The notes beneath the pieces are model-generated. The model made no database searches. It saw nothing but the letters and a program-made list of their open reading frames with translations, and was not told where the DNA came from. DNA of 64,000 bases, from assembly GCA_040772365.1 (NCBI GenBank), contig JAXGYI010000002.1, positions 2,762 to 66,761 of the forward strand, read 5' to 3'. Made by a program: the position numbers and the translations under genes. The stretch comes from Candidatus Moraniibacteriota bacterium (GTDB lineage: Bacteria > Patescibacteriota > Minisyncoccia > Moranbacterales > GCA-2747515). Of the stretch, positions 3,451 through 61,389 are shown one piece after another. Position 1 is the first letter of the stretch; each line of letters opens with the position of its first letter.

Positions 3451-3762
3451 TCCATACACTTAACAGGTGTCTGGTTCTAATATACATCAGAAAAGATTAT
3501 TGGTATTTTTATTTTTCATTTATACAAATGTCTACTGTGAAATGCATTTGTATCACAATCTTGATCTGTAGTATAGCGATGAATCTATAGATGCATCATA
3601 AAGTAAAACATATAGATGAAAATCCCTGTAGGCGAAGGAGTTGTTGTATTAAAATATTTTTTGCTACTTGATTTTTTTTGAATAGATGTTAAGATGCGTA
3701 GTTGTTTTTTAACAGTATGTTTGGCACACTCACCACGATATTCGACTACACAGGAGGAAGGC

Positions 3763-4761
3763 ATGGGATGGCGCATTGGGCTACTGAAAGCCTCGTACAG
3801 AAATCACTTGTTTTACTCAACTATCAACAAAAAAATGATGAAAGAAGTGCATCATATCACATCAGATGCAGCAGGTAGTCTGAGCAGCATCAATGTGGAC
3901 GGTATTTTGCGAAAAAACAACCTAGAAGTTGTGGAAAAAGAGTTTTTTCGCAACAAGAAAAATGTGCTCCGCGTGAAGGACGACTGCGGGAATCCGCTCA
4001 TCCTCAAGATCGGGGTGAGTGAAGTGCAAATGCGCTTGATGCGCAATCTACAGTGCATGGGGGGCTATTTGTGCTTCCGTGTCCCGCCCATTGTTGCTGC
4101 GGGCGAAGATTGGATGCTTATGGAGGAGGTGCAAGGACAGTTCTTGCACGAGCTCTATGAGGATAGTCCTGGTTTTTGTATAGAGATCAGTCGTCGTATT
4201 GCCAACGACTATCAGCATATCGCGATATCCATCGACAACAGAAATTTGTCTGGAGATTTGCTGCAGGTGGGGCAAATGCGACTGTACTCCCGGCTCAACA
4301 TCTGGAGTAAGCCGCTTGTTGATGCGGGGTTGATTGATTTTACTCTTGTGCAGCAGATTGCACAAGAATTCCAAAAAATTGTTGCCCGCAAAGGTGAGGA
4401 CTTCTTTGCGTGGGTTCATGGTAATATTATTGGCGACCACGTTATCATGAAGGATGATCTCCCGTATCTTCTTGACCTAGAGAGCGTGCCATGGGTCGGG
4501 CGGGGATACTACGATCTCCTGCGAGCATTGGACTTCATGTTCCTCATGTCGCAGGATGCGGAACGGATGCGTGTCGCCATCCCTCAATGGATCAACATGT
4601 ATACCCATCACCATAATCAAGAAGAAGTGCGACTTGTATTTGCGCTGCGCAACATCGGGATTTTGGGATGGGATATTCTCCACAACTCCGTGCCGTATGT
4701 GGTGGGGGATATTGAAAAGAAGAAGGAGATTGCACTGCAGTTCATCAAGAGAGAGTATTAA
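3763..4761 (+). CDS. kinase-like phosphotransferase (APH/ChoK/CotS-like fold)
   Basis: AGGAGG SD 6 nt upstream of ATG at 3763; Brenner-like HGNIIGDHVI and DLE motif (LLDLESV) resembling HGDxxxxN ... DxE of aminoglycoside/choline kinase family. Confidence 0.5.
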   Translation: MGWRIGLLKASYRNHLFYSTINKKMMKEVHHITSDAAGSLSSINVDGILRKNNLEVVEKEFFRNKKNVLRVKDDCGNPLILKIGVSEVQMRLMRNLQCMGGYLCFRVPPIVAAGEDWMLMEEVQGQFLHELYEDSPGFCIEISRRIANDYQHIAISIDNRNLSGDLLQVGQMRLYSRLNIWSKPLVDAGLIDFTLVQQIAQEFQKIVARKGEDFFAWVHGNIIGDHVIMKDDLPYLLDLESVPWVGRGYYDLLRALDFMFLMSQDAERMRVAIPQWINMYTHHHNQEEVRLVFALRNIGILGWDILHNSVPYVVGDIEKKKEIALQFIKREY

Positions 4762-4911: not shown

Positions 4912-4939
4912 TTGACAAGATTTTTTGTCTATGTATAAT
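4912..4939 (+). promoter_or_regulatory. sigma70-type promoter (TTGACA-16-TATAAT, TG adjacent) upstream of 16S
   Basis: cTTGACAagattttttgtctatgTATAATg, about 480 nt upstream of the 16S 5' end. Confidence 0.6.
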
Positions 4940-5409
4940 GGGGAGTAGCAATTAAGAATACAACAGCAAAAGCGTATCGTTGACTCCATTCCGACGGGTG
5001 AAAGAATGATACATCTCCGGACGTGCGCCTGTGGGCGTGTTAGCATGAGTGGAGATGTGTTTTTCTTTCCGTCACAGGGGCGGACGAAAAACGAGACCTT
5101 TAACAACTAAAGACGATCGTCACATGCCACCGAGTACACAACATGGTATGTGGCGACACTAGCAAAACTAAACTGCAAGAAATGTACCATTTTGGTGACT
5201 GTTTTTTGTGGTTAGTCCTAAACAACACCGTCGCAGAAATGCGACAGTGACGATCTATCTTTTGAGTCAGATATGACACTTGTCATATCTGTTCGGCACA
5301 CGCCGGACAAACAAACTTACACATAGGCATCTGCGCAAGCAGGGAACCTATGACGTCCCACCAACTGTTGATACGAGCAGGGGACGGTCAATCATCTGAT
5401 TGATATCGT

Positions 5410-6948
<1,539 letters not shown>

Positions 6949-6950
6949 CT

Positions 6951-7076
6951 AGGGAGATAAGGTGACGAGAGTTGATGGTCAACATCAGGTTCTCAAAACC
7001 CATAAGGTCGTTTGCACATCTTTTAGTGTGCAATCGCGACTCAAGATAGACGTATAGGACTAACCGCAAAAGACAG
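6951..7076 (+). repeat. direct repeat copy 1 (about 126 bp) immediately 3' of 16S
   Basis: AGGGAGATAAGGTGACGAGAGTTGATGGTCAACATCAGG...AAAAGACAG; near-identical copy at 15604-15729 (2 mismatches). Confidence 0.9.
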
Positions 7077-7101
7077 AATATATCTTGTTAGAAACAAGAA
7101 A

Positions 7102-7125
7102 ATCGTTATTTGTAACGATTTTTTT
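7102..7125 (+). terminator. intrinsic terminator 1 downstream of 16S
   Basis: atcgtta-tttg-taacgat stem followed by TTTTTT. Confidence 0.6.
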
Positions 7126-7173
7126 GTTTTTGTGTGCTTCCATATTGTATTGGCTGGTACACATCATTTTGTC

Positions 7174-7197
7174 AACCGGCCATAAGCCGGTTTTTTT
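7174..7197 (+). terminator. intrinsic terminator 2 downstream of 16S
   Basis: aaccggc-cataa-gccggtt stem followed by TTTTTTT. Confidence 0.6.
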
Positions 7198-7419
7198 GAC
7201 TTGCGCACGTAGTGCTTGTGGTCTGTGTACAGCAATACACAATCACAAGCGCTGCGTGGGCTGGTTATATGTCCGGCTAATATATCACCGTCCAAGGCAT
7301 ATTGGGTGGACAAATAACCAGCTAAAAACGATAAATTGCTCATATTTGTAAGATTTGATATATTTATTATAAGAAACCTAAAATACTCTGCTATATAATA
7401 ATAACAAAAACTTTCAACT

Positions 7420-7635
7420 ATGAATGAAGGCAGATTTGAACAATTTGTTAGCCAGCCGGAATTGGAAGAAAAACTTAAAAAAGCTCCAAGGAAACAAAGA
7501 ATATTTTTGATGAGCTTGAGAGTGAAAAAAGAAATGAATCATTTATTAATGAAGATAAATCTAAAAATGAAAAAAGTGCAAACAAGAGAGACCTTAGAAA
7601 GAAAACTGCAGGTTTTATTGAAAAAGATGGTGTAA
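7420..7635 (+). CDS. small Lys/Glu-rich ORF, possibly the 5' part of a frameshifted gene
   Basis: ORF overlapped by a frame-3 ORF open from 7479; several A6 runs at the overlap. Confidence 0.25.
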   Translation: MNEGRFEQFVSQPELEEKLKKAPRKQRIFLMSLRVKKEMNHLLMKINLKMKKVQTRETLERKLQVLLKKMV

Positions 7636-8087
7636 TAATAAAAAAAGAAAAGAGGCATACAGGCAAAGGAATTGATTCAGTTCGCCATCCTAAAGGTGAA
7701 ATCTCGACAGCCAGTAAATATGAGCAATTGCAAAAAGAATTAGAAGATCATGGCATGAGTCATCCGGGTGAGTGGCGTAAAACCTATGATGAAGATTTTG
7801 AAAGTGCTATCCATAAAAATTTTGACGCATTATACACTTATCTTGAGGGTGAAAAAAGGGTCTCTGACAAAGAAAAAATAAAAGCATTTAGCGAGACTGA
7901 AGACAGCATAGAACGGCTGGAGCTTTTGAGGTCTATGTCGCTTACTGATGCGGTTAAATGCTTGCGAGATTATGCTGACAACCCGGGACAATTCCGCTAC
8001 CTGGCCAATCGTTTGGATTTTTATCAAAAGTTATTTCAAGGCAAAGCAACACGTTTTATTCTCAATTATCACGACAGAAGCAAATAG
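7479..8087 (+). pseudogene. hypothetical ORF with no canonical start (TTG at 7728 or frameshifted continuation of 7420 ORF)
   Basis: open frame from the stop at 7476-7478 to 8087 with no ATG before 7755; overlaps the SRAP-like remnant in another frame. Confidence 0.3.
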
Positions 8088-8289
8088 TCTTGTTGGAAAA
8101 ATTCATGATAGCATACCAGTTATTCTGAGAAAAGATGAGGAAAAACAATGGCTTGATACGCATATGAAAGATGATGAAATCATGCAATACTTGAACAAAT
8201 ATACAAGTGAAAATATGAACGTGTACGATATATCCACATTAGTAAACAGCCCACATAATGATATGTCCGATGTTTTGCTTCCTGCATAA
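8005..8289 (+). pseudogene. C-terminal remnant of an SRAP (YedK/HMCES-like SOS-response-associated peptidase) domain
   Basis: FSIITTEAN..GKIHDSIPVIL..WLD....STLVNSPHND matches the SRAP C-terminal consensus (tftIlTt.an..iHdRmPvil..WL..pVs..VNsp.nd); the N-terminal part with the Cys2 nucleophile is missing. Confidence 0.4.
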
Positions 8290-8394
8290 ATATAATTCTA
8301 CATGTACCATTTTTGTATGAGTCAGTTCTAATGGTTGACTAGAAATGAAATAATGTATACACTATAGTGATATTTTTATTGTTGTAATTTATAT

Positions 8395-9502
8395 ATGGTT
8401 CCAGATTATATTCTGCAAATAATAAAAAAAGATATAAAGAGCATGAAGGGTCGCAATGGTAATTTTGTTGTCCCAAATTATAAGCCAGAAACTCATTATT
8501 TGGACCTGACTAGCAGTAACTACTATTTTGCTCTTCTGTGTATCAGAAACCATATTAAGCTAATTTCAGACCACTATTTCAATACTATTATCGGCGCGAA
8601 GAATATTGACCTTTTTATGCTTACGCCAAGCATATCATCTCCAATGGGGCCTGGCTCAGATTCGGAAGCAATTCCAATAACATTTGGCAAACTCAGTTCA
8701 TATCTTGTTGACTCATCACAATTTGGTTTTGAGCCTTTGATTTTAAATGGGTTAGACAAAGTATATTGCTATCTTCCATCAATGAGGGGGGAGGATTATG
8801 ATAATCGTCATCTAAATCAATTCTATCACTGTGAAATGGAGATGGCGGGTACACGTGAAGAGATGAAGAAGATCATCGAAGGTTATATTAAAATTCTTTC
8901 TGAAACATTATTGGAGGCGAAGGAAATAGTTGCTCTGATATCAGTTAATCCTAAAGTATCAATTGCAGTTTTAGAAGAGTTGGTCAAACAAGGTAAATTT
9001 GCGGAATTCACTTTTGATGAAGCTGTTGAACTTTTAGAAAAGAATGGTAAAAAACATCTTGTAAATTATACGAATACAGGTAGGGATATTAGTTCGGATG
9101 GTGAAATTGAATTGATGAAGATTATAAATCATAGATTACCTATTTGGTTGAATGACTTTGATAGAGATAGGGTGCCATTTTATCAAAAACCACAAGCAGA
9201 CAAAGTTATTGCGTCCGATTTGTTATTTACCCCCATTGCAAGAAGGTGCTTTTGGTGGTGAGATAGTTGGCTGTGGTCAGCGGCAAGATACAGCTGATGA
9301 AATTTACGAATCTTTAAAAAGACAGGGCCTTAATGCTGAACCTTATGAATGGTATATTAATTTGCGAAGACAAGAAAACTATGACACATCATCAGGGTTT
9401 GGATTCGGCGTAGAGCGTTTTATTACATGGGCATTGGGCATGAATGATATTAAGAATGCCATTATTTATCCTAGATTAAAAAATATTGATACTAAGCCTT
9501 AA
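8395..9502 (+). pseudogene. class-II aaRS-like amino-acid ligase (AsnRS/AspRS-type catalytic core, no anticodon-binding domain), frameshifted
   Basis: motif-2-like RGEDYDNRHLNQFYHCEME, then DLLFTP | LQEGAFGGEIVGCGQR and motif 3 GFGFGVERFITWALG; the two halves are in frames 1 and 2 and are joined by removing one C from the C5 run at 9230-9234. Confidence 0.65.
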
Positions 9503-9507
9503 TTAAT

Positions 9508-10347
9508 ATGTTTATGAATTCGTTCAATATTGATGAATTGGATTATTCCAAATTAGTGTCCATAGTTAAAGAGCGTAATCGTCCGTCCGGTGGTATTAAA
9601 ACAGTACATGAGGTTGCAGTAAATGCATTTGTGGATTCTTCAAAAAAAATGCTTGAAATTGGAAGTAATACAGGCTTTACAAGTGTTAATATGAGTCTTT
9701 TGACGGGATGTGATGTTACGGGTATTGATATTAATCAAGGGTCTGTAGATGAATCCATCGCATATGCTAAACGCAATGGTGTGGAGAAAAATACAAAATT
9801 TCAAGTTGCATCTGCAACAGAAATACCATTTGATGACAAATATTTTGATATAGTGTGGAGCAGCAATGTTACCTCATTCATAGATGATAAAAGTGCGGCA
9901 ATCAGAGAGTATTTACGAGTTCTTAAAGTGGGAGGTATTTTAGTTGTGGTGCCAATATATTATCATAGTGAACCTCCTGCGGATGTGATACGCAGTGTAT
10001 CAAAAGCAATTGGTGCTGAAGTAAAAGTTTGGGATGAGAAATTTTGGATTGACCAAGTACAAAAAAGTGCACCACAAGATGAGAATTTTGTTCAACTCAT
10101 ATATAAGTCATCGTATCGATACGACGATAAAAGTGATAGTGTGAGCAGCTATGTGGATGAAATATTTAACAAAGAACATTTAATTGCATATTCTGATGAA
10201 GCAAAAATGATGCTAAAGAATCGATATGCAAAATATATGGACATTTTTAATACCAACTTGCAGTACGCACAGTATTCGGTGCTATTATTCCAAAAACGAA
10301 ATGAGGCAGAAGAAGTGGAGCTTTTTACAACAAAGAAAAATAATTAG
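9508..10347 (+). CDS. class I SAM-dependent methyltransferase
   Basis: motif I LEIGSNTGF, motif II FDIVWSSNV, motif III LKVGGILVV. Confidence 0.7.
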   Translation: MFMNSFNIDELDYSKLVSIVKERNRPSGGIKTVHEVAVNAFVDSSKKMLEIGSNTGFTSVNMSLLTGCDVTGIDINQGSVDESIAYAKRNGVEKNTKFQVASATEIPFDDKYFDIVWSSNVTSFIDDKSAAIREYLRVLKVGGILVVVPIYYHSEPPADVIRSVSKAIGAEVKVWDEKFWIDQVQKSAPQDENFVQLIYKSSYRYDDKSDSVSSYVDEIFNKEHLIAYSDEAKMMLKNRYAKYMDIFNTNLQYAQYSVLLFQKRNEAEEVELFTTKKNN

Positions 10348-10361
10348 TAAAAGCTCATGCT

Positions 10362-11378
10362 ATGAGTGAAATTTTAAAACCACCATGTTTAAAAAAAGGT
10401 GACACTATTGCAATTGTGAGCCCGTCTTCAACAATTCAGCCATTTCCTCGACGTACAAAGCGTTCTGTAGGTTATTTGGAGAGCAAAGGATATAAGGTTG
10501 TATTTATGCCAAATGCCAAAAAAAATGATGGTTATAGTGGTGGCACTGCTCAAGAGCGTGCAGATGATATTAATAAGGCATTCCTCGATAAAAAGATAGA
10601 TGCGATTCTGTGCTCAACCGGTGGTTTAACAGCCAATGCTATTCTTCCATATATAAATTATGATCTTATTCATAAAAATCCAAAGATTTTTTGTGGATAT
10701 TCTGACATCACAACTCTTCTTTTGATGATTACATCAAAAGCAAATATTGTTACATATCATGGACCAACGCTCTTGCCGAGTTTTGGAGAATATGAAGGGT
10801 CAATTGGATTTACTTTTGATAGCTTTGAAAAGATGCTTTCTTCTAAAAAGGCATGTGGCGTACTTCCAACTGCGCATGAAATCGTTGCAAATAATCAATA
10901 TTGGGACAAAGAAGATGTTGAGTCGCTTGAGATGAAAGAGGCTGAGGATATCAAGTCTTTTGGAAAATCACGAAAAATCAGTGGAAAAGTATTTGGTGGT
11001 AATTTACAAACATTTACAATGTTGATGCATGATAAGGGATTTTTTGACCTAGAGGACACCATACTTTTATTGGAAGAAGAAGGTCTATCAACTGATTGGT
11101 ACGAGCGATATATCACTGAGCTTGAAAGATTGGGTATCTTTGAAAAAATTAATGGTATTATTTTTGCAAAGCCAAGCAATAGCTACAAAGAACCAAATAA
11201 AAAAATAAGAAATCTCGACCATATTTTGCGTGAAATATCTGATAAATATGACTTGGGAATCTTGAGTAATGTTGATTGTGGCCACACAAAACCATTATTG
11301 ACGATTCCACTTGGCATTGACGCTGAAATTGATACAAAAGCAAGAACTTTATCAATAAAGGATGCAGCAGTCTGCTAA
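10362..11378 (+). CDS. S66 family LD-carboxypeptidase (LdcA/MccF-like)
   Basis: IAIVSPSS N-terminal strand, GYSDITTLL Ser-nucleophile motif, C-terminal CGHTKP His motif. Confidence 0.65.
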   Translation: MSEILKPPCLKKGDTIAIVSPSSTIQPFPRRTKRSVGYLESKGYKVVFMPNAKKNDGYSGGTAQERADDINKAFLDKKIDAILCSTGGLTANAILPYINYDLIHKNPKIFCGYSDITTLLLMITSKANIVTYHGPTLLPSFGEYEGSIGFTFDSFEKMLSSKKACGVLPTAHEIVANNQYWDKEDVESLEMKEAEDIKSFGKSRKISGKVFGGNLQTFTMLMHDKGFFDLEDTILLLEEEGLSTDWYERYITELERLGIFEKINGIIFAKPSNSYKEPNKKIRNLDHILREISDKYDLGILSNVDCGHTKPLLTIPLGIDAEIDTKARTLSIKDAAVC

Positions 11379-11395
11379 TTATTATCATTGATATT

Positions 11396-12643
11396 ATGCA
11401 AAAAACGGTCATAATAGTTGAACATGACACGCCAAAAGAATTTTTGTTAAAAAAAGCAAAGGAAAGAGGGTATCGTGTTGTGATGGTTGCAAATAGTCAG
11501 AATGAACTGTTTAATAAATATCTTCCCAATGAAGATGTTTTAATCACTGATGTTTTCAATTTGCACACAATTCTGGAAGATGTGCTATTTTTTGTGAAAA
11601 AAAATAACTTGCATATAGATGCGGTAGGAACATTTAGTGAAGAACTTGTTGTAGCAGCATCAGACATTGCGCAATCTTTGGGATGCAAAGGAATTGGACA
11701 ACTAGCAAGTAGAAGAACTTCAAGCAATAAACTGGCCATGAGAATGAGATTAGATGAAGTGGGAATTATGCAACCTGCATTCTCAGCGTTCAATATTTTT
11801 GAAGATAATGATGACATGCTGCGTAGTTTTCCAAAGCCCTGTGTTATAAAGCCGATTTTTGGCACTTCAAGTCATGGCGTTATTCTGATTGAAGAAAATG
11901 ATTTTGATTACAAAAAAATACAAGAAATAGTTAAAGCGACGGTGAATCGTAAATGTAGAGAAGCATTTCGAAGATTTCGCGGAAACATGCTTGTGGAAGA
12001 ATATATTCCTGGAGATATGATATCTGTTGATGGATTTGTTAATGATGGAAAGGTATCTATTATTGGCACCTTGGAATTTATAATGGGGAAAGAGCCATAT
12101 TTTACACAAACAGCGAGTTATATTCCGGCACGTTTATCAAAATCGCAAAATGGTAATATCCAAACATATGTTAATAATGTCATACATGCATTAGATTTTG
12201 ATTGCGCTCCATTTCATATGGAAATTCGAATAAAAAATGAAAAACCACATTTGGTGGAAATTGCCGGCAGAATGGCTGGAGCCACAATTCATGAAGCTTA
12301 TGATAAAGTTTATGGAATTGATATGATTGGCTTGATGTTTGACTGTTGGTTTGGAGAATTATCATTTCCAAAGTATCAACATAAGGGAATCAATTATCAT
12401 GAGTTATTTTATCCGAAAATTAATGATACTTGTATATTAAGCGAGGTAAAGGGCATCGACGATATAAGAAAAGAAAAAGATATATGGCATTTCAAAATGA
12501 TATCCGATAAAGGTGACACCTTAAAAACATATCCTAATTTGCCAACCCCACTATTTGAATATGCAATTTTTTCAAAGAATTTTGCTGAAATTGAAAGAAT
12601 TAAAGATATGATAAAAAAAATGATTACGTATGATATCCAATAA
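11396..12643 (+). CDS. ATP-grasp domain ligase
   Basis: CVIKPIFGTSSHGVILIEE and LVEEYIPGDMISVDGFV, typical ATP-grasp B/C-domain motifs. Confidence 0.6.
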   Translation: MQKTVIIVEHDTPKEFLLKKAKERGYRVVMVANSQNELFNKYLPNEDVLITDVFNLHTILEDVLFFVKKNNLHIDAVGTFSEELVVAASDIAQSLGCKGIGQLASRRTSSNKLAMRMRLDEVGIMQPAFSAFNIFEDNDDMLRSFPKPCVIKPIFGTSSHGVILIEENDFDYKKIQEIVKATVNRKCREAFRRFRGNMLVEEYIPGDMISVDGFVNDGKVSIIGTLEFIMGKEPYFTQTASYIPARLSKSQNGNIQTYVNNVIHALDFDCAPFHMEIRIKNEKPHLVEIAGRMAGATIHEAYDKVYGIDMIGLMFDCWFGELSFPKYQHKGINYHELFYPKINDTCILSEVKGIDDIRKEKDIWHFKMISDKGDTLKTYPNLPTPLFEYAIFSKNFAEIERIKDMIKKMITYDIQ

Positions 12644-12666
12644 GTTTTATAATTGAGAATACGGCA

Positions 12667-13135
12667 ATGAAAACTATTTATCTAGGATGTGATCACGCGG
12701 GATTTGATTTTAAAGAAAAGGTGAAGAACTATCTAATTAAGAAAAAATTTGATGTTGTAGATTTTGGCACATATACATACAATGAATATGACGATTACCC
12801 AGATTTTTTACATCCTGTAGCTCAGGCGCTTTCGCAAAATCCACAGGAGAGAGCAATAATTTTTGGAGGTTCTGGCATGGGGGAGTCGATATTGTTGAAC
12901 AAATATAACGGTATACGTTGTGGCGTATGGTATGGAGGTGATAAGTCAATAATTGCAAACTATAGAGGAACATGATGATATTAACGCTATAGCTATTGCA
13001 TCGCGCTATGTGAATGAGGATATATTGTATGATATTGTTGATGTTTTTTTAAGCACAGATTTTATTAAAGAGGAAAAATATATTCGTAGACTGAATAAGA
13101 TTGAAAATAAATTTAAAACCGAAAAGGGAGTGTGA
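12667..13135 (+). pseudogene. rpiB: ribose-5-phosphate isomerase B / sugar-phosphate isomerase (RpiB/LacAB family), frameshifted
   Basis: MKTIYLGCDHAGFDFKEKV...GGSGMGESILLNKYNGIR matches the RpiB N-terminus; the C-terminus NAIAIASRYVNEDILYDIVDVFLSTDFIKEEKYIRRLNKI matches in frame 2 after a single-base shift near 12950. Confidence 0.6.
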
Positions 13136-13152
13136 CCCTTTTCGGTTTTAAT

Positions 13153-14214
13153 CTAGATGGCATATAGTTTTGCGAACATCTCTGAGCCAAAACCGCTTGA
13201 ACAAAAAACCATCTTATGATTATTGAGTAGTCCTTTTATCCAATCCTTGGCGCCACCATCAATTAAAGAACATCTCTTACCATTCATATTTTCTGCGGAT
13301 ATTTTGAAACATAATCCGCTATGATAACCAAGACCAGCTGACCTTTCCAAATGATACTGGAAAAGAATATCTGGATAGCTATTGGCAAGTTCTTTAATCT
13401 TTGGGTCAAATAATTGGAATAGTCGAAGCTCGTCTGTGATGTCAATTACCTCGCTTGATGTTGAATCTATCTCATTCGGATTAATAGTTGCCGGAATATC
13501 AATGCCAAGACTTTTAAAAGTCGGTTTTTCATCCGTCCGAATTGACTTCGAAAATGCATTCCTATCGATGTTTAACCACTGGACAACCTTCTCCATGATG
13601 TGCGTATTGGATATTGAAACCTTGATGTTTTTCAGAAAATATTTTCCTGAAGAATTCAAAGCATTCAATATCATCAGCCATGAAAATATATGGCTTCCAA
13701 TCAAGTCTAAAATTATCTGGGAATCAGAGTTTTTTTGAGTACTTGATAGGGCAAATCCACGAAAGTGCTGTGTCAGGTTTGATTCAAGTGAAAATTTTTG
13801 CATCCTTACCATTCGACCACTTGTTGCAAAGCATAAGGGACTAACAGAATCAGTCCATTTTTTTGCAGATTCTAATGCGAGTAGTATTGTGATATCAGCA
13901 AGCACCTCAACATCTTTAATGGTTGATAGTACTGTTTTTTGGCTAATCTCACTGAGCGTGCTACTTGCACCAATTGGTGCAAGGGGTGAAAAATCAAGAA
14001 GCTCAAATTCATGAGGAAGAGCTTCTAGAATAACACTATCTACATTAAATAACGTACGTGCATTAGTTGAACATGGTCCCACAAAAGCATTTCTCTCGTA
14101 GTTTTGACGAATATCCGAATGTTTAAGGCTTTTGACCTTTTCAAAAACAATAGATAACAGGTAAGAATAAAACTTACTCCACCTCATTGTGATGATATCT
14201 TCTGATTTATTCAT
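13153..14214 (-). CDS. hypothetical protein; possible HisRS/HisZ-like class-II aaRS-fold paralog
   Basis: C-terminal LIDGGAKDWIKGL...CSSGFGSEMFAKL weakly resembles the HisRS motif-3 region (GGRYDgL...aVGFaiGlERL); otherwise no match. Confidence 0.3.
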   Translation of the reverse strand: MNKSEDIITMRWSKFYSYLLSIVFEKVKSLKHSDIRQNYERNAFVGPCSTNARTLFNVDSVILEALPHEFELLDFSPLAPIGASSTLSEISQKTVLSTIKDVEVLADITILLALESAKKWTDSVSPLCFATSGRMVRMQKFSLESNLTQHFRGFALSSTQKNSDSQIILDLIGSHIFSWLMILNALNSSGKYFLKNIKVSISNTHIMEKVVQWLNIDRNAFSKSIRTDEKPTFKSLGIDIPATINPNEIDSTSSEVIDITDELRLFQLFDPKIKELANSYPDILFQYHLERSAGLGYHSGLCFKISAENMNGKRCSLIDGGAKDWIKGLLNNHKMVFCSSGFGSEMFAKLYAI

Positions 14215-14382
14215 TTTTCACCTCCTCGGTTGTTAAGGTTCTTGACTGGTGATTCTATATCTTTACAGTACAATTGTCAATTTGATAATATTGACTGATG
14301 TGGTTATTTCTGCTAACCTGTTTTGAAGGCAAAAATAGTGATTTTGTACGTTAACATCATAAGATATTGGGAGGCTCATATT

Positions 14383-15234
14383 ATGAACGCCACAATTTTA
14401 TATGGACTTTTAGAGGCCGCATTTATTGCAAAAACAATGAGTGATAGTTGGGCTAAGTATATGAGCGAAGTTGGTGATTATTTGTGTGGAAATTTCATGC
14501 ATCGCTCAATGGGATTGGTTTGCGATAATGCTTCAGAAATCGAATATGTATACACAGCAGTATTTCCAGAAAAAAGTATTATGCAAGCGATATTAGATTC
14601 AGGACAAAAAAACGCATTGCTATTTGTGCATCACCCATCTGTTTGGAGTTATATAAACGCAAAGTTTACATATGTACAAATGGAAAGAAAGCTTTTGCAG
14701 GAATTCAAAAACAGGAATATATCAATATACTGTTTGCATGTTCCTCTGGATGCCTTCGGAAACTATTCTACGGGTGTAACGCTTGCAAATGCATTGGGTT
14801 TTGATATAGAAAGTTCGTTTGGTCAATATCGCGGGGCGGAGTGTGGAGTTATTGCAAAAACAAATCTCCATGATGTACATGACTTAACAAATGTTTTATC
14901 AAGAATTATTGGACATAGCGCAAAGCTGTATTCGTATGGCGGTTCTGACAATAAGAATGGTAGTGTTGCAATATTGCCGGGAGGTGGAAACGATATTGCC
15001 TTCATCAAAGAGGTTTACCAAATTGGTGTTAATACTGTCATTGTGGGAGTTTCTTCTTTGAACCAAGACACTTACACTGCGCATGAGTTCGAAAAAGATA
15101 AGGGGATTAATTTGATTGGGGGAACGCATTACTCAACGGAAAAATTTGCATGTGAAGCGATGTGTTCATTTTTTCACAATATTGGAATTCAATCAGTATT
15201 TATTCCTGGAAATCCGTTAATGTTAGACTTATAA
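14383..15234 (+). CDS. NIF3 (YbgI/YqfO) family dinuclear metal centre protein
   Basis: LLFVHHPSVW and IYCLHVPLDA motifs, GGTHYSTE near the C-terminus. Confidence 0.6.
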   Translation: MNATILYGLLEAAFIAKTMSDSWAKYMSEVGDYLCGNFMHRSMGLVCDNASEIEYVYTAVFPEKSIMQAILDSGQKNALLFVHHPSVWSYINAKFTYVQMERKLLQEFKNRNISIYCLHVPLDAFGNYSTGVTLANALGFDIESSFGQYRGAECGVIAKTNLHDVHDLTNVLSRIIGHSAKLYSYGGSDNKNGSVAILPGGGNDIAFIKEVYQIGVNTVIVGVSSLNQDTYTAHEFEKDKGINLIGGTHYSTEKFACEAMCSFFHNIGIQSVFIPGNPLMLDL

Positions 15235-15256
15235 GAAAGGAGGGTTAATACAAAAA

Positions 15257-15292
15257 GCCGCAATCAATTGATTTATGAATTGTGGCTTTTTT
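15257..15292 (+). terminator. intrinsic terminator after NIF3-like gene
   Basis: gccgcaat / attgtggc 8-bp stem (one G:U) followed by TTTTTT. Confidence 0.6.
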
Positions 15293-15353
15293 AATTAGAA
15301 TGTGATATTATATTGGTGGTCAAACATCAATTTACACGAAGGAGGATACAACG

Positions 15354-15506
15354 ATGACAATTGACATGTTAGACCGACAAGAGCTCGACGATGTAAAACT
15401 GGCTCGTATGCACCTTGAAGCGTATAATGCCATGATGGAAGCAAGACGAAATTATGAACCATTTGCAGGAATTTGGAACCGCATTCGCCGCATTTTTTGC
15501 AAATGA
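15354..15506 (+). CDS. small ORF (50 aa) with strong SD
   Basis: GAAGGAGG 7 nt upstream of ATG; MTIDMLDRQELDDVKLARMHLEAYNAMMEARRNYEPFAGIWNRIRRIFCK. Confidence 0.3.
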   Translation: MTIDMLDRQELDDVKLARMHLEAYNAMMEARRNYEPFAGIWNRIRRIFCK

Positions 15507-15603
15507 TGAATAAAATCGCCTATCTCACAAAAATACTCTTATACCGCGTATGGGAGTATAATCTTTAAAAAATTAATATTATCTCACGAATCACCTCATT
15601 TTT

Positions 15604-15729
15604 AGGGAGATTAGGTGACGAGAGTTGATGGTCAACATCAGGTTCTCAAAACCCATAAGGTCGTTTGCACATCTTTTAGTGTGCAATCGCGACTCAAGAT
15701 AGACGTATAGGACTAACCGTAAAAGACAG
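15604..15729 (+). repeat. direct repeat copy 2, preceded by a degenerate 16S 3'-end-like sequence (aatcacctcattttt)
   Basis: 124/126 identity with 6951-7076; upstream aatcacctcattttt resembles 16S terminal ggatcacctcctttct. Confidence 0.9.
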
Positions 15730-15825
15730 TGAACAAAAATACATAACAAAGAGCACGGGCTTTTTGTTGTTTATTTTTGTTCGTTAGAAAATTTAAAAAA
15801 ATATCCACATACGAAGGAGGGGTGG

Positions 15826-16200
15826 ATGGATATTTATGGAAAACTTGAGAATGTGCGAAACACCCAAGAGGTTTCGCATTGGCACTTGACGTTCACAAAG
15901 AAGGTGCCAAAGGGTGTTCTCACCATTGGCAACCGATGGGTGGTGACGCTTAACCACCATAGTGGAGAAGCGCTTTTTGATCGGAACGGTTTCCAAGTCC
16001 GATTTGGATCCAAACCAATCGGACAGCCAGCAGAAGAGGAAGCTGCACTACTAAAAGTGTTTTATCAGCTTCTACACCTATTTAGTATCGGGATTGATGC
16101 TGCTCCAGTTGAATTGGAGTATATGGTGGATGAGGATATTGGCAAATTTCTCCTCAACCGCTCGATCACGGCTTCTCTGGAGCCACTGAGGTTGTCATAA
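15826..16200 (+). CDS. hypothetical protein encoded inside the 16S-tRNA-Ile spacer
   Basis: AGGAGG 5 nt upstream of ATG; 124-aa ORF with host-like GC; no recognisable domain. Confidence 0.45.
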   Translation: MDIYGKLENVRNTQEVSHWHLTFTKKVPKGVLTIGNRWVVTLNHHSGEALFDRNGFQVRFGSKPIGQPAEEEAALLKVFYQLLHLFSIGIDAAPVELEYMVDEDIGKFLLNRSITASLEPLRLS

Positions 16201-16276: not shown

Positions 16277-16352
16277 GTGCACGTAACTCAATTGGGAGAG
16301 TGCCTGTATGATAAGCAGGTGGTTGCGGGTTCGAATCCCGTCGTGCGCTCCA
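16277..16352 (+). tRNA. tRNA-Ile (anticodon GAT)
   Basis: 76 nt; acceptor gtgcacg/cgtgcgc, U8, D-stem actc/gagt, anticodon loop atGATaa, T-loop ttcgaat, CCA encoded. Confidence 0.85.
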
Positions 16353-16551: not shown

Positions 16552-17629
16552 TGTGCAATAAAGTGATAGAGGGTGATTATTGTTAACATTGCAGCAAAAC
16601 AGGTAACACTTTTATTAATAAAGGTGTATGCTAAAACGTTATTTTTAGCATAAAACCTCATGAATACCTACGATCCGCGATATATGCAATTACAACAGGA
16701 AAAATTGGAAATGATCATAGTAAAGCGACAGAGCGTCAGATCTGTCGCCAAAGAGCTTTCCGTATCACGAAAAACCATTTACCAGTGGTTGGTACGATAC
16801 AAAACATATGGATTGGACGGATTAAGAAAACAAAAGAGAAAGAAGTATCCCATAGCCCATAACAGAACAAAACAGCATATTGAAAAGACCGTAATCTTTG
16901 TTGCAAGGCAATTCCACACCGAAGGTGTGGAATCTCTTTCAGATATCCTTTATGCGGAATATGGCATTACGCTGCACTCCACGACAATTTACAGGATTCT
17001 TAAAAGAAACAATATCAGATACGGACCATATCATGCCCATACACACAAAAGATGGAAAAAGAAGCTGTATGCACATAGAATACCGGGATCGGAGCTCCAA
17101 ATGGATACGATGTATCCATTTGGATACAAAGCAGGGAAGGTTGTTTACACGATTATTGATGATGCAAGTAGATGGTCATATGTCAAAACATATGATAGAG
17201 CAAATGGTACAAATACTGTCGATTTTTTAACCAACGTCATCAAAAGATCATATTGTGACATTTATAAAATTCGTACAGATCATGGAACAGAATTTATCAA
17301 TGCAAAAACACAAGATTTTCTTAAAAACAACAATATTGTCCATAGAAGAAATACTGTAGGATGTCCAGAGCAAAATGGGAAAATCGAACGATTCCATCAA
17401 ACGCTCAAGAGAGCTTTCAGGTACCATATTCCGTATGACAGTTCTATTGATTCCATGCAATACAAGCTTATCTTGTTCATGCAGTATTACAATTATACAA
17501 AAAGACATCGGGGACTTGGCATGCATGGGCTAACGCCCATGCAAAAGCTGAATGAATTAAGAAGTGTTACCTTGACGCTGCAATGTCACAATTATTGACA
17601 ATACCCATAATATGTGATATAATTGCACA
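16552..17629 (+). mobile_element. IS481-family insertion sequence (about 1.08 kb), apparently intact
   Basis: terminal inverted repeats TGTGCAAT... at 16552 and ...ATTGCACA at 17629; single HTH+rve transposase ORF. Confidence 0.6.
16660..17598 (+). CDS. IS481-family DDE transposase (HTH + rve integrase core)
   Basis: N-terminal HTH (SVRSVAKELSVSRKTIYQW); DDE core TIIDDASRW...RTDHGTEF...NGKIERFH. Confidence 0.8.
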   Translation: MNTYDPRYMQLQQEKLEMIIVKRQSVRSVAKELSVSRKTIYQWLVRYKTYGLDGLRKQKRKKYPIAHNRTKQHIEKTVIFVARQFHTEGVESLSDILYAEYGITLHSTTIYRILKRNNIRYGPYHAHTHKRWKKKLYAHRIPGSELQMDTMYPFGYKAGKVVYTIIDDASRWSYVKTYDRANGTNTVDFLTNVIKRSYCDIYKIRTDHGTEFINAKTQDFLKNNNIVHRRNTVGCPEQNGKIERFHQTLKRAFRYHIPYDSSIDSMQYKLILFMQYYNYTKRHRGLGMHGLTPMQKLNELRSVTLTLQCHNY

Positions 17630-17666: not shown

Positions 17667-18686
17667 ATGAATAAGCGTATTATTGCTACAATTTTGATTT
17701 TTGTCCTGACGTTTGGTCTGATCTATGGCATGCTCTCCGGGGGCATGGCGGTGTTTTCACGTCGTTCGGTGGCATATGATACGGAATCGGAAAAGACAAC
17801 TAAGGATTTTGGTATTCCCAAGGCGTGGCAAGAGAGGTATGGTGTGAGTGTGTTGTCGGAGGTGGATCTCTTGCGCGATGACGACAATGACGGGTTGACG
17901 CTGAAAGAGGAATACATTCACAATACGGATCCCAATAATCCTGACACGGATGGTGACGGCTATAATGACGGGCGCGAAGTTGCTAATGGATACAATCCCG
18001 CAGGCGATGGCATTTTGGATGAGAATAAAAACGGCATTCCCGATAAATACGAAAAAGATGCCGCCGGCAATATCATTGCAGACACGGATGAGGATGTGGA
18101 TGGCGACGGTTTAAGCGCGCATGAGGAATACTTGTTTGGCACGGATCCCAATAATCCTGACACGGATGGTGACGGCTATAATGACGGGCGCGAAGTTGCT
18201 AATGGCTATGACCCTACGGTGCCGGGTGACGCGCGTATTGCCGTGACGATTGAGATTGCCAAAATTGATGTGAAGGTGCCAGTGGTGCTTGCCAAGAGCG
18301 ATGATGAGAAAACACTGGAAAGCGATCTGAATTTTGGCGTGATCCACTATCCTGGCACACCGCTGCCCGGACAGCGCGGCAACGCCTACATTGCTGGACA
18401 CAGCAGTAACTACTCGTGGTCCAAAGGTAAATACAACTATGTGTTTAAGCGATTGAATGAAGTGCAGGAGGGTGATGTGATCACCGTACGCTTCCTCCTT
18501 CACAATCGCAAAGAGATTATCTATAGCTATCTTGTGCAGACCAATGTGGAGACGGCACCGGATGATCCCCGCATCTTTGAGCAAGGGTATTCCAAGGAGT
18601 TAACGCTGACAACATGTTGGCCGCTCGGTTCCGATGCACGTCGCTTGATGGTGAAGGCAGTCTTGCAAAATGACGACACGAACTAA
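17667..18686 (+). CDS. sortase (transpeptidase) with N-terminal TM and thrombospondin-type-3-like Ca-binding repeats
   Basis: repeats [22 protein letters not shown] x2; catalytic YIAGHSS (His), LTLTTCWP (Cys), downstream ARRLMV (Arg). Confidence 0.7.
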
Positions 18687-51560: not shown

Positions 51561-51631
51561 CGGGATGTCGTATACCGGTAGTACGCATGATTCGGGTTCA
51601 TGTAGACCGAGTTCGATTCTCGGCGTCCCGA
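51561..51631 (+). tRNA. tRNA-Pro (anticodon CGG), CCA not encoded
   Basis: acceptor cgggatg/cgtcccg, U8, anticodon arm catga-ttCGGgt-tcatg, T-arm ccgag-ttcgatt-ctcgg. Confidence 0.8.
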
Positions 51632-51652
51632 CAGGCAGTGCTATGTATTTTT

Positions 51653-51723
51653 CGGGGTGTCGTATAGTGGTAGTACGCAAGCATGGGGTGCTTGTAGCCG
51701 CGGTTCGATTCCGCGCACTCCGA
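51653..51723 (+). tRNA. tRNA-Pro (anticodon GGG), CCA not encoded
   Basis: acceptor cggggtg/cactccg, anticodon arm caagc-atGGGgt-gcttg, T-arm cgcgg-ttcgatt-ccgcg. Confidence 0.8.
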
Positions 51724-51742
51724 CATGAGAGTCACAGACTTT

Positions 51743-58873: not shown

Positions 58874-60121
58874 ATGATGCGACAACTACTCTTATCATTG
58901 CGTATCACGTGGCAAAATTTTCTTGTGGCGAAAATGCGCATGTCACTGACAGTGCTTGGCATTATTGTTGGCATTGCAGCTGTGATGATCGTGATGAGTG
59001 TCGGTGCAAGTGCGCAAAATGTGATCCTAGATCAAATTCGTTCTATTGGTGCAAATCTTATAGGTATTTTACCAGGGTATTCTGAAGATGATGGTCCACC
59101 CGCCAGCGCCTATGGCGCTGTCATCACGACACTCACCACTGATGACCTAGAAGCAATTCGTGAGAAGAATAATGTGCCGGGTATTACTGCAGCGGCGGGC
59201 TACGTAACAGGGAACGGTGTGGTAAAATACAAGTCCTATGCAAAGTCACACACCTATCAGGGTGTCTCTGCAGAAGTGCAGCAGGTGGAGAATATGTCGC
59301 TTGCGTCAGGTCGATTTTTTACCATACAGGAAAATGATGCACGCGCTCGCGTTGCTGTCATCGGTGCAACGGTGGCACGCAACATTTTTGATCGCAGTGA
59401 CCCGCTGGGGAAGACCATTGCGCTTGGTGATAAGAATTTTCGTGTAGTTGGCGTGTTAAAACCAAAGGGCGCATCCATGCTATCAAACTTTGATGATACG
59501 GTCTACGTGCCACTTACAACGGCACAGAAAGATCTCCTAGGTATCTCCTATGTCAATTTTATCCGCATGCGTGCTATTGATGAGCATCACATTACACAGG
59601 TGGAGCACGATGTGGATATTTTACTGCGGTCACGTCATCATATCAAAGATGGGGAAGATGGTGATTTTAGCATCCGTGCCGCTGCATCAGCACTGGATAT
59701 GGTTACCAACATCACCAACATTATGAAATACTTCCTCATTGCTGTTGCCGGCGTCTCACTCGTGGTTGGTGGTATCGGGGTGATGAATATCATGTTCATT
59801 GCACTGTCACAGCGCATGCGTGAAATTGGTCTCCGTAAGGCACTCGGTGCTCGGCGTAAAGACATCATTGTGCAATTTCTGTTTGAAGCAACAATTATTG
59901 CGATTGCCGGAGGCGTGCTCGGGTTTCTTTGTGGATTGGGCGTGATCTACGGTGTTGCTGCAATTGCCTATGCCAAGGCATTCACATGGCATGCGGTGGT
60001 AACAGGTCCAATGGTGCTGATTGCATTAGCTATTGCTGTGGTCTTGGGTCTCTTATTTGGTATTTATCCAGCGCTACGTGCAGCGCGAGTCAGTCCAATG
60101 GAGGCACTGCGTTACGAATAA
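58874..60121 (+). CDS. ABC transporter permease, FtsX/MacB-type (4 TM + periplasmic domain)
   Basis: MacB_PCD-like periplasmic domain plus C-terminal FtsX TM bundle. Confidence 0.75.
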   Translation: MMRQLLLSLRITWQNFLVAKMRMSLTVLGIIVGIAAVMIVMSVGASAQNVILDQIRSIGANLIGILPGYSEDDGPPASAYGAVITTLTTDDLEAIREKNNVPGITAAAGYVTGNGVVKYKSYAKSHTYQGVSAEVQQVENMSLASGRFFTIQENDARARVAVIGATVARNIFDRSDPLGKTIALGDKNFRVVGVLKPKGASMLSNFDDTVYVPLTTAQKDLLGISYVNFIRMRAIDEHHITQVEHDVDILLRSRHHIKDGEDGDFSIRAAASALDMVTNITNIMKYFLIAVAGVSLVVGGIGVMNIMFIALSQRMREIGLRKALGARRKDIIVQFLFEATIIAIAGGVLGFLCGLGVIYGVAAIAYAKAFTWHAVVTGPMVLIALAIAVVLGLLFGIYPALRAARVSPMEALRYE

Positions 60122-60129
60122 TCTACTCT

Positions 60130-61389
60130 ATGGTACACCTGTTTGGTCTCATGCGCATATCATTTAAAAGCCTGTTTTCCCATACGGGGCGAACAGTGTT
60201 AACGCTGTCTGGTATCATCGTGAGTGTCATAGCGATTATGAGCGTTGTGACGTTGGGTGAATCACTACGCAACTATGTCACTAAGGAGGTGGAGTCGTTT
60301 GGCACGGATACGATTCAGGTGGAAGTTTCTGTGCCGGAGACGGGGCGCGTGTCTGCGGAAAATGGAGCAGCACAGGCAATGGGCGTACAGATTACAACGC
60401 TGACAGATCGCGACGCAGAAGCTATTGCACTTTTGCCAGATGTGGCAGCATATAACATTGGCGTCATCGGACAGACGCGCACAACCTATGCCAATAAAAA
60501 ACGCTACACGATGATTTTGGGATCGTCGTCCACTGCGCCAATTGTGGATTCCAATATTGTACTAGATGCCGGACGATTTTTCTCTGCAGAAGAGGAGAAG
60601 TCTGCAATGAATGTGGTTGTACTTGGGTCAGATGTTGCTGAAGCTTTTGCCGGTGACCACACTGCAGATCTCGTAGGGCAGCGTATTACCGTCAACAGTA
60701 GTAAGTACCTTGTCGTGGGCATTGCCAAGAAGCGCGGTGCAACATTTGGCGTATCTTTTGACGATATGATTTACATGCCGTATACGACACTCCAGAAAAA
60801 AATTCTTGGCATTAAGCATATCAGTTATATTACAGTTAAAGCTACCGATCCTGCACATGTGGATCGCGCAGCACAAACAATCCGCACACTTCTCCGTCTC
60901 CGTCACGGCATTAAGACAGAGGCAGCGGAAGATTTTTCCGTGACAACGATTACAGAAGCACAGGAGATTCTTGGTACAATTTTAGGTAGCATGAATATTC
61001 TCTTATTGGCACTGGCGTCGGTATCTCTCGTAGTTGGGGGTATTGGCATTATGAATATTATGTTGGTATCCATTGAAGAGCGGCGACGTGAGATTGGACT
61101 ACGTAAAGCTCTCGGTGCGCGCAAGAATGATATGATTGTGCAATTTCTTATTGAGTCAGTGATGATTGCCTGTGCTGGAGCGCTCATCGGTGTGGTTATT
61201 ACTGTAATCCTTTTATCAGCAGCGTTTAGTGGTATTCAGTATGCAGGATTTGACTCTATTCATTTCTACATCCCCACAAAAGCCATTCTCATTGCACTGC
61301 TCTTTTCTATTTCAACAGGGATAGTTTTTGGCGTCTATCCAGCACGTCGTGCAACACAGATTTCTCCCATGGAAGCCCTAGCATCATAG
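60130..61389 (+). CDS. second FtsX/MacB-type ABC permease
   Basis: paralog of the upstream permease with the same architecture. Confidence 0.75.
   Translation: MVHLFGLMRISFKSLFSHTGRTVLTLSGIIVSVIAIMSVVTLGESLRNYVTKEVESFGTDTIQVEVSVPETGRVSAENGAAQAMGVQITTLTDRDAEAIALLPDVAAYNIGVIGQTRTTYANKKRYTMILGSSSTAPIVDSNIVLDAGRFFSAEEEKSAMNVVVLGSDVAEAFAGDHTADLVGQRITVNSSKYLVVGIAKKRGATFGVSFDDMIYMPYTTLQKKILGIKHISYITVKATDPAHVDRAAQTIRTLLRLRHGIKTEAAEDFSVTTITEAQEILGTILGSMNILLLALASVSLVVGGIGIMNIMLVSIEERRREIGLRKALGARKNDMIVQFLIESVMIACAGALIGVVITVILLSAAFSGIQYAGFDSIHFYIPTKAILIALLFSISTGIVFGVYPARRATQISPMEALAS

Follow-up and report, generated by a model that had tools for sequence, protein, structure and literature searches.

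How an 8.5-kb block of foreign composition came to lie at the very 3' end of a 16S ribosomal RNA (rRNA) gene is the question raised by the stretch of DNA analysed here, 64,000 nucleotides (nt) of a Candidatus Moraniibacteriota bacterium (GenBank assembly GCA_040772365.1, contig JAXGYI010000002.1, positions 2,762 to 66,761 of the forward strand), which we call the window. Bacteria of the candidate phyla radiation (CPR) have small genomes, usually with a single rRNA operon and a single 16S copy, and to our knowledge few mobile elements have been characterised in them. A sequence-only reading of the window had described the block as a horizontally acquired, AT-rich island in the spacer behind the 16S gene. 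We consider it probable that the block is an integrase-less island, either degenerate or non-autonomous, occupying an attachment site over the last 12-14 nt of the 16S gene, and that tyrosine integrases of this clade use the 16S 3' end as their host attachment site (attB).

The 16S gene is full length (positions 5411-6948, plus strand; Rfam RF00177, 1404.6 bits, model positions 1-1533). A repeat search and a self-BLAST of the window yielded a single long repeat, 6937-7076 versus 15590-15729, both on the plus strand, which is 140 nt long with 97% identity. The 126-nt repeat with two mismatches that had been seen in the letters is correct and forms part of this larger unit, the four mismatches of which lie at 6945 (C/A, inside CCTCC), 6949 (C/T), 6959 (A/T), and 7067 (C/T). 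Homology begins 12 nt inside the Rfam-bounded 16S gene, at ATCACCTCCTTT. The left copy, which resembles a left attachment site (attL), consists of the last 12 nt of 16S and a 128-nt trailer whose final part is the 3' strand of the processing helix, GGACTAACCGCAAAAGACAG; the right copy, resembling a right attachment site (attR), consists of a decayed 16S tail, ATCACCTCATTTTT, and a trailer in its native context. The degenerate 16S end that had been read before the second copy, aatcacctcattttt, is likewise present, i.e., the anti-Shine-Dalgarno motif CCTCC has become CCTCA there. Each copy ends in 25 nt (GTATAGGACTAACCG[C/T]AAAAGACAG) that pair with positions 5199-5223 of the 16S leader, and a second, inner segment pairs too; the predicted leader-trailer duplex is about 40 bp long, with an energy of -50.3 kcal/mol for the left trailer copy and -52.5 kcal/mol for the right one. 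The leader strand of this long processing helix was placed at 5180-5275 (plus strand) from inverted repeats and predicted duplex energies. Because the repeat starts 12 nt inside 16S and ends exactly where the leader-pairing strand ends, we regard it as one functional unit, the 16S tail with its complete 3' trailer.

The 8513 bp between the two copies (7077-15589) are compositionally foreign. Their GC content is 34.9% (0.349 versus 0.469 in the rest of the window), and the GC content at third codon positions (GC3) is 0.26-0.32 in the island genes versus 0.46-0.57 in the native flanking genes, with 0.38 in a nearby insertion sequence transposase. The tetranucleotide profile of the island correlates with that of the rest of the window at 0.62, versus at least 0.90 for all 8.5-kb control windows. 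The proposed check of GC and tetranucleotide profiles thus agrees with the AT richness and deviant codon usage described from the letters, and composition and repeats together uphold horizontal acquisition; the site, in contrast, needs correcting, as the insertion lies 12 nt inside the gene end and not in the spacer behind it. One metagenome contig (L087; the prefix L marks our numbered loci) has a GC content of 34.5% throughout and a tetranucleotide profile that correlates with that of the island at r = 0.975, and on these two grounds the donor was probably a low-GC CPR relative of the L087 kind.

Several lines of evidence tell which repeat copy is the native one. The leader-trailer helix extends past the repeat into the flank for the right copy only. 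The closest outgroup found, L125 (89.6% identity over 16S and trailer), has a flank past its trailer that resembles the flank of the right copy (TGAAAACAA vs TGAACAAAA), and it also has C at the position of 7067. In five relatives, the transfer RNA (tRNA) gene for tRNA-Ile(GAT) lies 330-860 nt behind 16S and is followed by those for Met, Phe, and Pro (and Gly where the contig reaches); in the window, tRNA-Ile(GAT) (16277-16352, plus strand, Rfam) lies 674 nt past the displaced 16S tail. Helix continuation, the L125 flank and 7067 allele, and the spacing to tRNA-Ile therefore identify the right copy and its flank as the original 16S end, and the earlier suggestion that the island displaced tRNA-Ile holds. 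The left copy arrived with the insertion or was made by it. In L096, the left-copy allele adjoins the native flank, but only 48 nt of the repeat are covered there.

Is this arrangement peculiar to one genome? We scanned metagenomes with a 45-nt pattern from the 16S 3' region that is specific to the clade and obtained 84 loci with 63 distinct trailers, all of the related loci being metagenome contigs. Nine of them (L110, L115, L133, L138, L144, L152, L160, L168, and L183) have the 16S tail a second time on the same strand, 1.4-13.5 kb further downstream; most of these second copies read GAATCACCTCCTTTCTAGGGAG where the gene has GGATCACC..., and the homology always starts from the same base. A tenth case, a tandem relic, is L106: its 14-nt tail plus trailer matches the 16S end of L109 over 228 nt at 100% identity, and behind it comes a 138-nt piece of 16S that has another trailer. 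Three tail copies are found in L160 and in L138, which points to tandem accretion, and no tail copy was found 5' of a full 16S gene in about 119 kb. The extent of the trailer shared between copies ranges from the whole trailer (98% in the window, 97% in L160, 93% in L144, and 84% in L138) down to none; the shared sequence is only 20-22 nt in L115, L168, and L183 and 27 nt in L133.

Of the eight tail copies with enough flank for the comparison, all except that of L110 can be aligned in register with another genome's 16S end and trailer. The comparison of related genomes with and without an island, which had been proposed as a check, succeeds at a greater distance for other islands: the occupied L168 and the empty L128 align over 1122 nt, a stretch that takes in the next gene, equally spaced in both. 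This in-register alignment means that these tail copies are displaced native 16S ends. In L133 and L168, the cargo between the copies is lower in GC than the flank beyond, and genomes whose 16S and trailer are 95-100% identical lose all similarity immediately past the trailer. The window also shares an island-side arm with other loci: ATCTCACGA, adjoining the right repeat (15581-15589, plus strand), matches ATCTCCCACGA located 5' of the tail copy in L138, L152, and L160, with one or two changes in L110 and L183, so that an arm of the form ATCTC(CC)ACGA is common to the window island and other islands. Islands at the 16S 3' end had been called rare, which does not apply to this lineage, as at least ten other loci have a tail duplication at the same base and 16 have an integrase.

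Some further observations concern the tails and trailers themselves. The ATCTCCC of the arm before the tail copy is an inverted repeat of the GGGAGAT after the tail (window 15581-15613; also L138, L152, L160, L183, and L110), which would put the anti-Shine-Dalgarno-like tail in a hairpin loop or between inverted binding sites. The 138-nt 16S 3' fragment of L106 (positions 1168-1305, from CCGCCCGTCACACC) has its own trailer and lies 85 nt past another tail-plus-trailer copy; some insertions of the clade thus seem to duplicate 138 nt of the 16S gene and not 14. L115 and L164 have 16S genes that are 100% identical over 900 nt, but their trailer types differ from 11 nt past the shared GGATCACCTCCTTTCT tail, and the L115 trailer leads into an integrase gene, i.e., trailers have been exchanged between otherwise identical 16S genes. 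For L183, the leader-trailer duplex energies equal those of shuffles, but the segment tested as leader was 16S sequence, the gene being longer than assumed. The possibility that tail copies are ribosome-binding sites of minus-strand genes (reverse complement AAAGGAGGTGAT followed by GTG) was discarded, as no open reading frame (ORF) starts there; the putative minus-strand start in the window reads GTG AGA TAA, and the tail copies extend into trailers.

The same loci associate the 16S end with integrases. In L115 and L133, the first gene past the 16S trailer encodes a tyrosine recombinase (PF00589, E = 5e-42); a paralogue lies deeper inside, and both islands end at a tail copy. By tblastn, tyrosine recombinase homologues of 24-74% identity lie 0.2-2.3 kb behind 16S, co-oriented with it, in 16 of the 72 loci with enough flank; one of the 16 is a 47-aa remnant. 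The viral-flagged contig L188 begins with a 16S end, followed by a trailer and then an integrase. From position alone, these integrases would be specific for the 16S tail.

A 49-kb phage contig from IMG/VR, IMGVR_UViG_3300035208_000971, was found to carry a matching site. It encodes a large terminase, an HNH nuclease, and an integrase 42% identical to that of L133, and 220 nt beyond the integrase lies a 21-nt exact copy of the clade's 16S tail. Over 24 nt this site is identical to the second tail copy of L115, with which it has extra TCA arm bases in common. About 110 nt past the core the phage reads CAGGACAACTACACAAACTTTG, which by eye resembles GGACAACCGCAAAAGTTTGC, the motif at the leader-pairing end of the host trailers. 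The 15 kb of this contig that were read contain no rRNA gene, and past the core there are only small ORFs without a known family.

The repeat and its anatomy, the foreign composition, the recurrence of the architecture, the association with integrases, and the phage site are all observed directly; from them we infer that an integrase made the insertion in the window and was later lost, or acted in trans. In the mechanism that we propose, attB would overlap the last 12-14 nt of 16S and be used by tyrosine integrases carried on islands and on at least one phage. The incoming DNA would bring its own 16S tail and a complete trailer, including the leader-pairing strand. After insertion, the left copy (attL) would complete the 16S gene with an element-derived tail and trailer, and the original tail and trailer would have moved to the far end (attR), still joined to the 124-aa ORF that lies next to it and to tRNA-Ile. 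No longer under selection, the displaced tail could then have decayed from CCTCC to CCTCA. The cargo would be a metabolic cluster from a low-GC CPR relative that has been picking up frameshifts in some strains, and an island without the enzyme would be an element that has degraded or one that is non-autonomous and is helped in trans. The window island fits this scheme in its boundaries, its orientation, and its island-side arm; the small ORF at its right end is shared with L106, and we also count in favour the remnant of a phage-type SRAP gene in its left part.

Nevertheless, a number of points weigh against an integrase-mediated origin. No integrase was found in the island or in the rest of the 64 kb (no PF00589, no serine recombinase domain, and no tblastn remnant), which for 7077-15589 agrees with the sequence-only reading. 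The trailer copies are identical at 124 of 126 positions around foreign cargo, which a simple event between attB and a phage-type site (attP) does not predict; it could be due to a donor from among very close relatives, to gene conversion afterwards, or to entry by homologous recombination over the 140 nt. Three of the four mismatches fall within the first 23 nt, and a crossover inside the tail requires them to be later decay. By our own estimate, the chance of such clustering under uniform decay is about 0.02. We would take the phage site to be attP, with its downstream arm serving as a working trailer, on the strength of its context and one end motif, but a BLAST comparison of the phage arm with the clade trailers finds no similarity past the 21-24-nt core, and the site could in principle be an attR with an unrecognised host flank. 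No excision or recombination was observed, and there is no excision product among the metagenome contigs. The attachment core of the right copy is mutated (a mismatch in the 12-nt tail and another 1 nt beyond it), and the island may no longer be capable of mobilisation. An empty site within the species, which the sequence-only reading had proposed to look for as 16S-repeat-tRNA-Ile, was not found; every sample with this organism also has island genes.

The near-identity of the trailers bears most directly on the competing idea that the island entered by homologous recombination. Here, RecA would have acted through the 140-nt tail-plus-trailer, by insertion of a circle (Campbell type) or by a cassette swap, with the repeat architecture either pre-existing or present on circular DNA, and no site-specific recombinase would have served this island. 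We think this doubtful but deserving of serious weight. Flanking trailers that match at 124 of 126 positions despite the foreign cargo are what it would give, it needs no integrase and none is present, and the 228-nt, 100% identical tail-plus-trailer repeat of L106 and L109 is of the same kind; CPR bacteria are moreover thought to take up DNA. What it leaves unexplained is why homology begins at the same 16S base in many genomes whose trailers are unrelated, why the island-side arm ATCTCCCACGA is conserved between different hosts, and why integrases and a phage are associated with the site. The 20-22 nt shared in L115, L168, and L183 (27 nt in L133) are too little for RecA, and a first event that created the duplication is still needed. 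The sequence-only reading had left open homologous recombination or a lost recombinase; given the tail duplications, the 16 integrase loci, and the matching phage site, a recombinase that was lost or acts in trans is better supported than plain homologous recombination. The two routes are not fully exclusive, as an integrase could have made the architecture and the cargo could have been swapped in later.

Vertical origin, in which the island genes would be old spacer content and the second copy the relic of a tandem 16S 3' duplication or of a largely deleted second 16S gene, is disfavoured and seems to us highly improbable. It would fit the presence of the island in every sample of the species, and unlinked rRNA genes are described as common in Patescibacteria in a preprint (bioRxiv 10.1101/705046). 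The island genes also form a normal chromosomal cluster in other CPR genomes. However, the differences in GC3 and in tetranucleotide correlation given above speak against it, about ten genomes with different cargo would each need their own, independent deletion that stopped precisely 12-14 nt short of the 16S end, and the cluster of the relatives lies between ligA and gatC or behind an S-adenosylmethionine (SAM) decarboxylase gene, not at 16S.

The recurrence of the island in other samples was examined on contigs of the same organism recovered by exact-protein look-ups in metagenomes (from an anaerobic digester and others), and the same structure was found in independent assemblies from at least five samples. 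The right junction is crossed at 100% identity by three contigs from three other samples, one of them a k=127 assembly. At the left junction, a contig in SRR13001968 begins in the left repeat with the diagnostic C allele and enters the island, and another contig goes from the island into the decayed tail. The contig JAXGLK010000002.1, from a metagenome-assembled genome (MAG) at NCBI, is colinear over 20 kb, from 16S through both repeats and tRNA-Ile to beyond leuS, so that the continuity over both repeat copies for which read mapping had been suggested is confirmed by independent assemblies. The points at which short-read contigs break are exactly those from which the two copies have their 31-mers in common, which is what a true repeat would give. 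That a low-GC organism's contig was chimerically joined at 16S through a collapsed repeat is therefore a negligible prospect in our view, even though rRNA regions are classic places for chimeric joins in metagenomes and the short-read contigs of several samples break inside the repeat, since the right junction is identical in three samples, the left one was seen independently, the MAG contig is colinear over both copies, and the breaks fall where 31-mers cease to be unique. An absence of the island from samples of the Joint Genome Institute (JGI) cannot be argued, because a JGI fragment of the island's ATP-grasp gene exists. Exact-protein look-ups returned no record for the 355-aa gene upstream of 16S or for the split AsnA-like ORF of the island, a look-up with a shorter start reached only the 16S 5' end, and a metagenome scan with the last 32 nt of the repeat gave no match.

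Other sources of mobility near the island were considered and rejected. A transposon or insertion sequence does not fit, as a repeat search showed the island ends at 7077 and 15589 to be free of terminal inverted repeats, the duplicated stretch measures 140 nt, and the sole transposase lies outside the island. That transposase, of the IS481 family (16660-17598), was also rejected as the agent: it is located beyond the repeats, comes with inverted repeats of its own, and is missing from L004 and L096. The insertion sequence to which it belongs (16583-17590, with inverted repeats at about 16573-16595 and 17577-17599) lies just past tRNA-Ile, and its empty site is clean in contigs from SRR13001968 (L004) and JGI 3300002898 (L096), which makes it a strain-level polymorphism. 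A sortase gene (17667-18686) has bacterial TSP3 repeats and an internal 68-nt repeat (17925-17992 and 18141-18208); strains that are more than 99% identical in the neighbouring DNA share only 85-88% identity in this gene, which is a hypervariable surface-protein gene.

What the island carries is largely a set of ordinary genes. Just inside its left end are two terminator-like hairpins on the plus strand, one at about 7101-7125 (aatcgtta...taacgattttttt) and one with a T run at 7174-7192, followed by small ORFs and then the SRAP (YedK-like) remnant (7948-8289, plus strand), which retains the C-terminal third (profile positions 144-214 of 214; Pfam PF02586, E = 1.2e-15; PHROG 1599, E = 2e-15). 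All of the following genes except one are also on the plus strand. The first encodes an AsnA-like class II aminoacyl-tRNA-synthetase core (8395-9502; asparagine synthetase A or a paralogue of asparaginyl-tRNA synthetase), which is split by one extra C at 9230 (C5 vs C4) and is intact, with 368 aa, in SRR11702768. It is followed by genes for a SAM-dependent methyltransferase (9508-10347; Pfam Methyltransf_11, E = 9e-20), an S66 LD-carboxypeptidase of the LdcA/MccF family (10362-11378; PF02016, E = 4e-38; PF17676, E = 1.5e-23), and an ATP-grasp ligase (11396-12643) with weak matches to the L-amino-acid ligases BacD and DdaF, from a small family of 27 proteins in a search of 5.8 billion sequences. 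RpiB (12667-13135) is split by one extra G at 12967 (GG vs G); it is intact (155 aa) in SRR11702768, and SRR13001968 has the same frameshift. The frameshifts in the AsnA-like gene and rpiB, the recurrence of the latter, and the intact state of both genes in SRR11702768 indicate that the cargo is decaying in some strains. Contigs of SRR13001968 break at the 9230 site, possibly since the site is polymorphic in that sample.

The one gene on the minus strand (13153-14214) encodes a 353-aa protein without a known family, with a non-significant hint of histidyl-tRNA synthetase (PF13393, E = 0.32), which is conserved in the cluster (356 aa in L087). A NIF3/DUF34 family protein (14323-15234; PF01784, E = 9e-22) and, at the right end of the island, a 50-aa ORF (15354-15506) complete the set. 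L106 has a homologue of the latter (tblastx E = 7e-12; tblastn 44% identity) in the equivalent position, immediately 5' of a 16S-tail copy. The small ORFs and the 353-aa protein had no significant match in PHROG, Pfam, NCBIfam, or PDB.

The block from the AsnA-like gene to RpiB recurs as a conserved cluster among the core genes of other CPR genomes, so the cargo, as judged by sequence comparison, is not exotic. Its neighbours in L088-L091 are ligA on one side and gatCA/secE-nusG-L11-L1 on the other. L087 has the entire block up to NIF3 in the same order, behind a SAM decarboxylase gene and colinear with island positions 8463-15238 at about 70% nucleotide identity over 6.9 kb. Our guess for the role of the cluster is amino-acid or peptide ligation together with murein-peptide recycling. 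The cluster of L088-L091 (about 6977-12941 of L088) is, at 41% GC, likewise poorer in GC than its flanks in a 46-49% GC genome, and it may move among CPR genomes more generally.

Around the island, the 16S locus has features of its own. A TTGACA-16-TATAAT sequence about 470 nt 5' of 16S (4912-4939, plus strand) matches the sigma-70-type consensus at 12 of 12 positions and is likely the rRNA promoter. Past the right repeat copy lie a terminator-like hairpin (15743-15770) and the ORF of 124 aa (15826-16200), without a known family, on the native side between the displaced 16S end and tRNA-Ile; both are on the plus strand. Rfam found no 23S or 5S rRNA gene in the window, i.e., none within 47 kb 3' of tRNA-Ile and 57 kb of 16S. 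The rRNA genes are thus unlinked in the window; there is a terminator-like hairpin behind tRNA-Ile, and there is no tRNA-Ala. Upstream, the 355-aa gene, from a family without a name, lies 650 nt 5' of 16S (3694-4761), and its homologue is found about 530 nt 3' of the 16S end in L098, L128, and L168, i.e., 16S has switched sides relative to this gene. In the distant relative L098, the gene order differs, 16S being 5' of a 332-aa gene. A species-genome scan of lepA relatives (Moranbacteria/Paceibacterota, LepA 63-68% identity) found no 16S gene behind lepA. Elsewhere in the window, two tRNA-Pro genes (CGG, GGG) adjoin each other at 51561-51632 and 51653-51724, and a 160-nt repeat of 71% identity (59753-59912 vs 61021-61180) has its copies 1.3 kb apart.

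Taking the clade as a whole, we lean, if only a little, towards a more general proposition: that temperate phages and islands of CPR bacteria use the 16S 3' end as an attachment site and carry a surrogate 16S tail, including the anti-Shine-Dalgarno, with a trailer. The rRNA 3' end and the maturation signals of a carrier would then be element-encoded, and the site would rank among the main hot spots at which gene content varies in these reduced genomes, with insertion there being one way for tRNA-Ile and 23S to become separated from 16S. If integrases routinely dock in the last bases of 16S, the rule that stable-RNA 3' ends serve as integration sites would extend from tRNA and transfer-messenger RNA (tmRNA) to rRNA, with the added constraint that the element must supply a trailer able to pair with the host leader. 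This would offer a concrete, testable mechanism for part of the unlinking of rRNA genes in Patescibacteria and a predictable place to seek accessory genes, prophages, and host-phage links in CPR metagenomes. The sequence just behind CPR 16S genes would often be mobile, which would matter for binning and spacer-based typing, and an integrase with its 21-nt core would be a candidate genetic tool for organisms so far without one.

The nearest known counterparts are the islands and prophages that tyrosine integrases of the P4 and lambda type integrate at the 3' ends of tRNA or tmRNA genes, the gene being restored. As there, the target here is the 3' end of a stable-RNA gene, the replacement 3' end brought by the element keeps the gene intact, and the displaced original end stays as a direct repeat at the far side; foreign cargo, tandem accretion (three copies in L160 and L138), and integrase-less degenerate derivatives are common to both. 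The target, however, is a 16S rRNA gene, and the window island is without an integrase. The element arm, here and in several relatives, comprises 12-14 nt plus a whole trailer of 110-230 nt with its leader-pairing strand, unlike in tRNA islands, and the leader-pairing constraint on the element has no tRNA counterpart.

A second comparison is with the cis-mobilizable elements (CIMEs) found near ICESt1 and ICESt3 of Streptococcus thermophilus, which are islands flanked by attachment sites and without recombination genes. The window island likewise has attL- and attR-like repeats at both ends and no recombinase, and related autonomous elements, i.e., integrase islands and a phage with the same 20-21-nt core, occur at the same site in related hosts of the clade. 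In contrast to CIMEs, no cognate autonomous element was found in this genome, and the core of the right copy is mutated. We think that the window island is probably one member of a group of 16S-end elements, now immobilised.

Within CPR bacteria, insertions in 16S rRNA genes have been described as introns, some of which encode homing endonucleases (Brown et al. 2015, as cited in bioRxiv 10.1101/705046). These occur in the same organism group and likewise place foreign DNA inside an rRNA gene, but they are excised from the transcript and entail no target duplication; here, the insertion is at the extreme 3' end, tail and trailer are duplicated, and several kb of ordinary genes with terminators are brought in. 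The same preprint (Brewer et al.) lists Patescibacteria among the clades with unlinked rRNA genes, which agrees with the lack of a 23S gene within 57 kb downstream of 16S in the window; the island explains the separation of 16S from tRNA-Ile, not the absence of 23S. A term search of that preprint found the word 'mechanism' absent and 'insertion' used once, about insertions within rRNA genes. A full-text literature search for a natural element that integrates at a 16S 3' end found none, the matches being engineered integrations or unrelated work. Integration at tRNA and tmRNA 3' ends, integrase-less islands flanked by attachment sites, and unlinked rRNA genes in Patescibacteria are all known; what appears to be new is the proposed integration of the tRNA type at the 3' end of a 16S rRNA gene.

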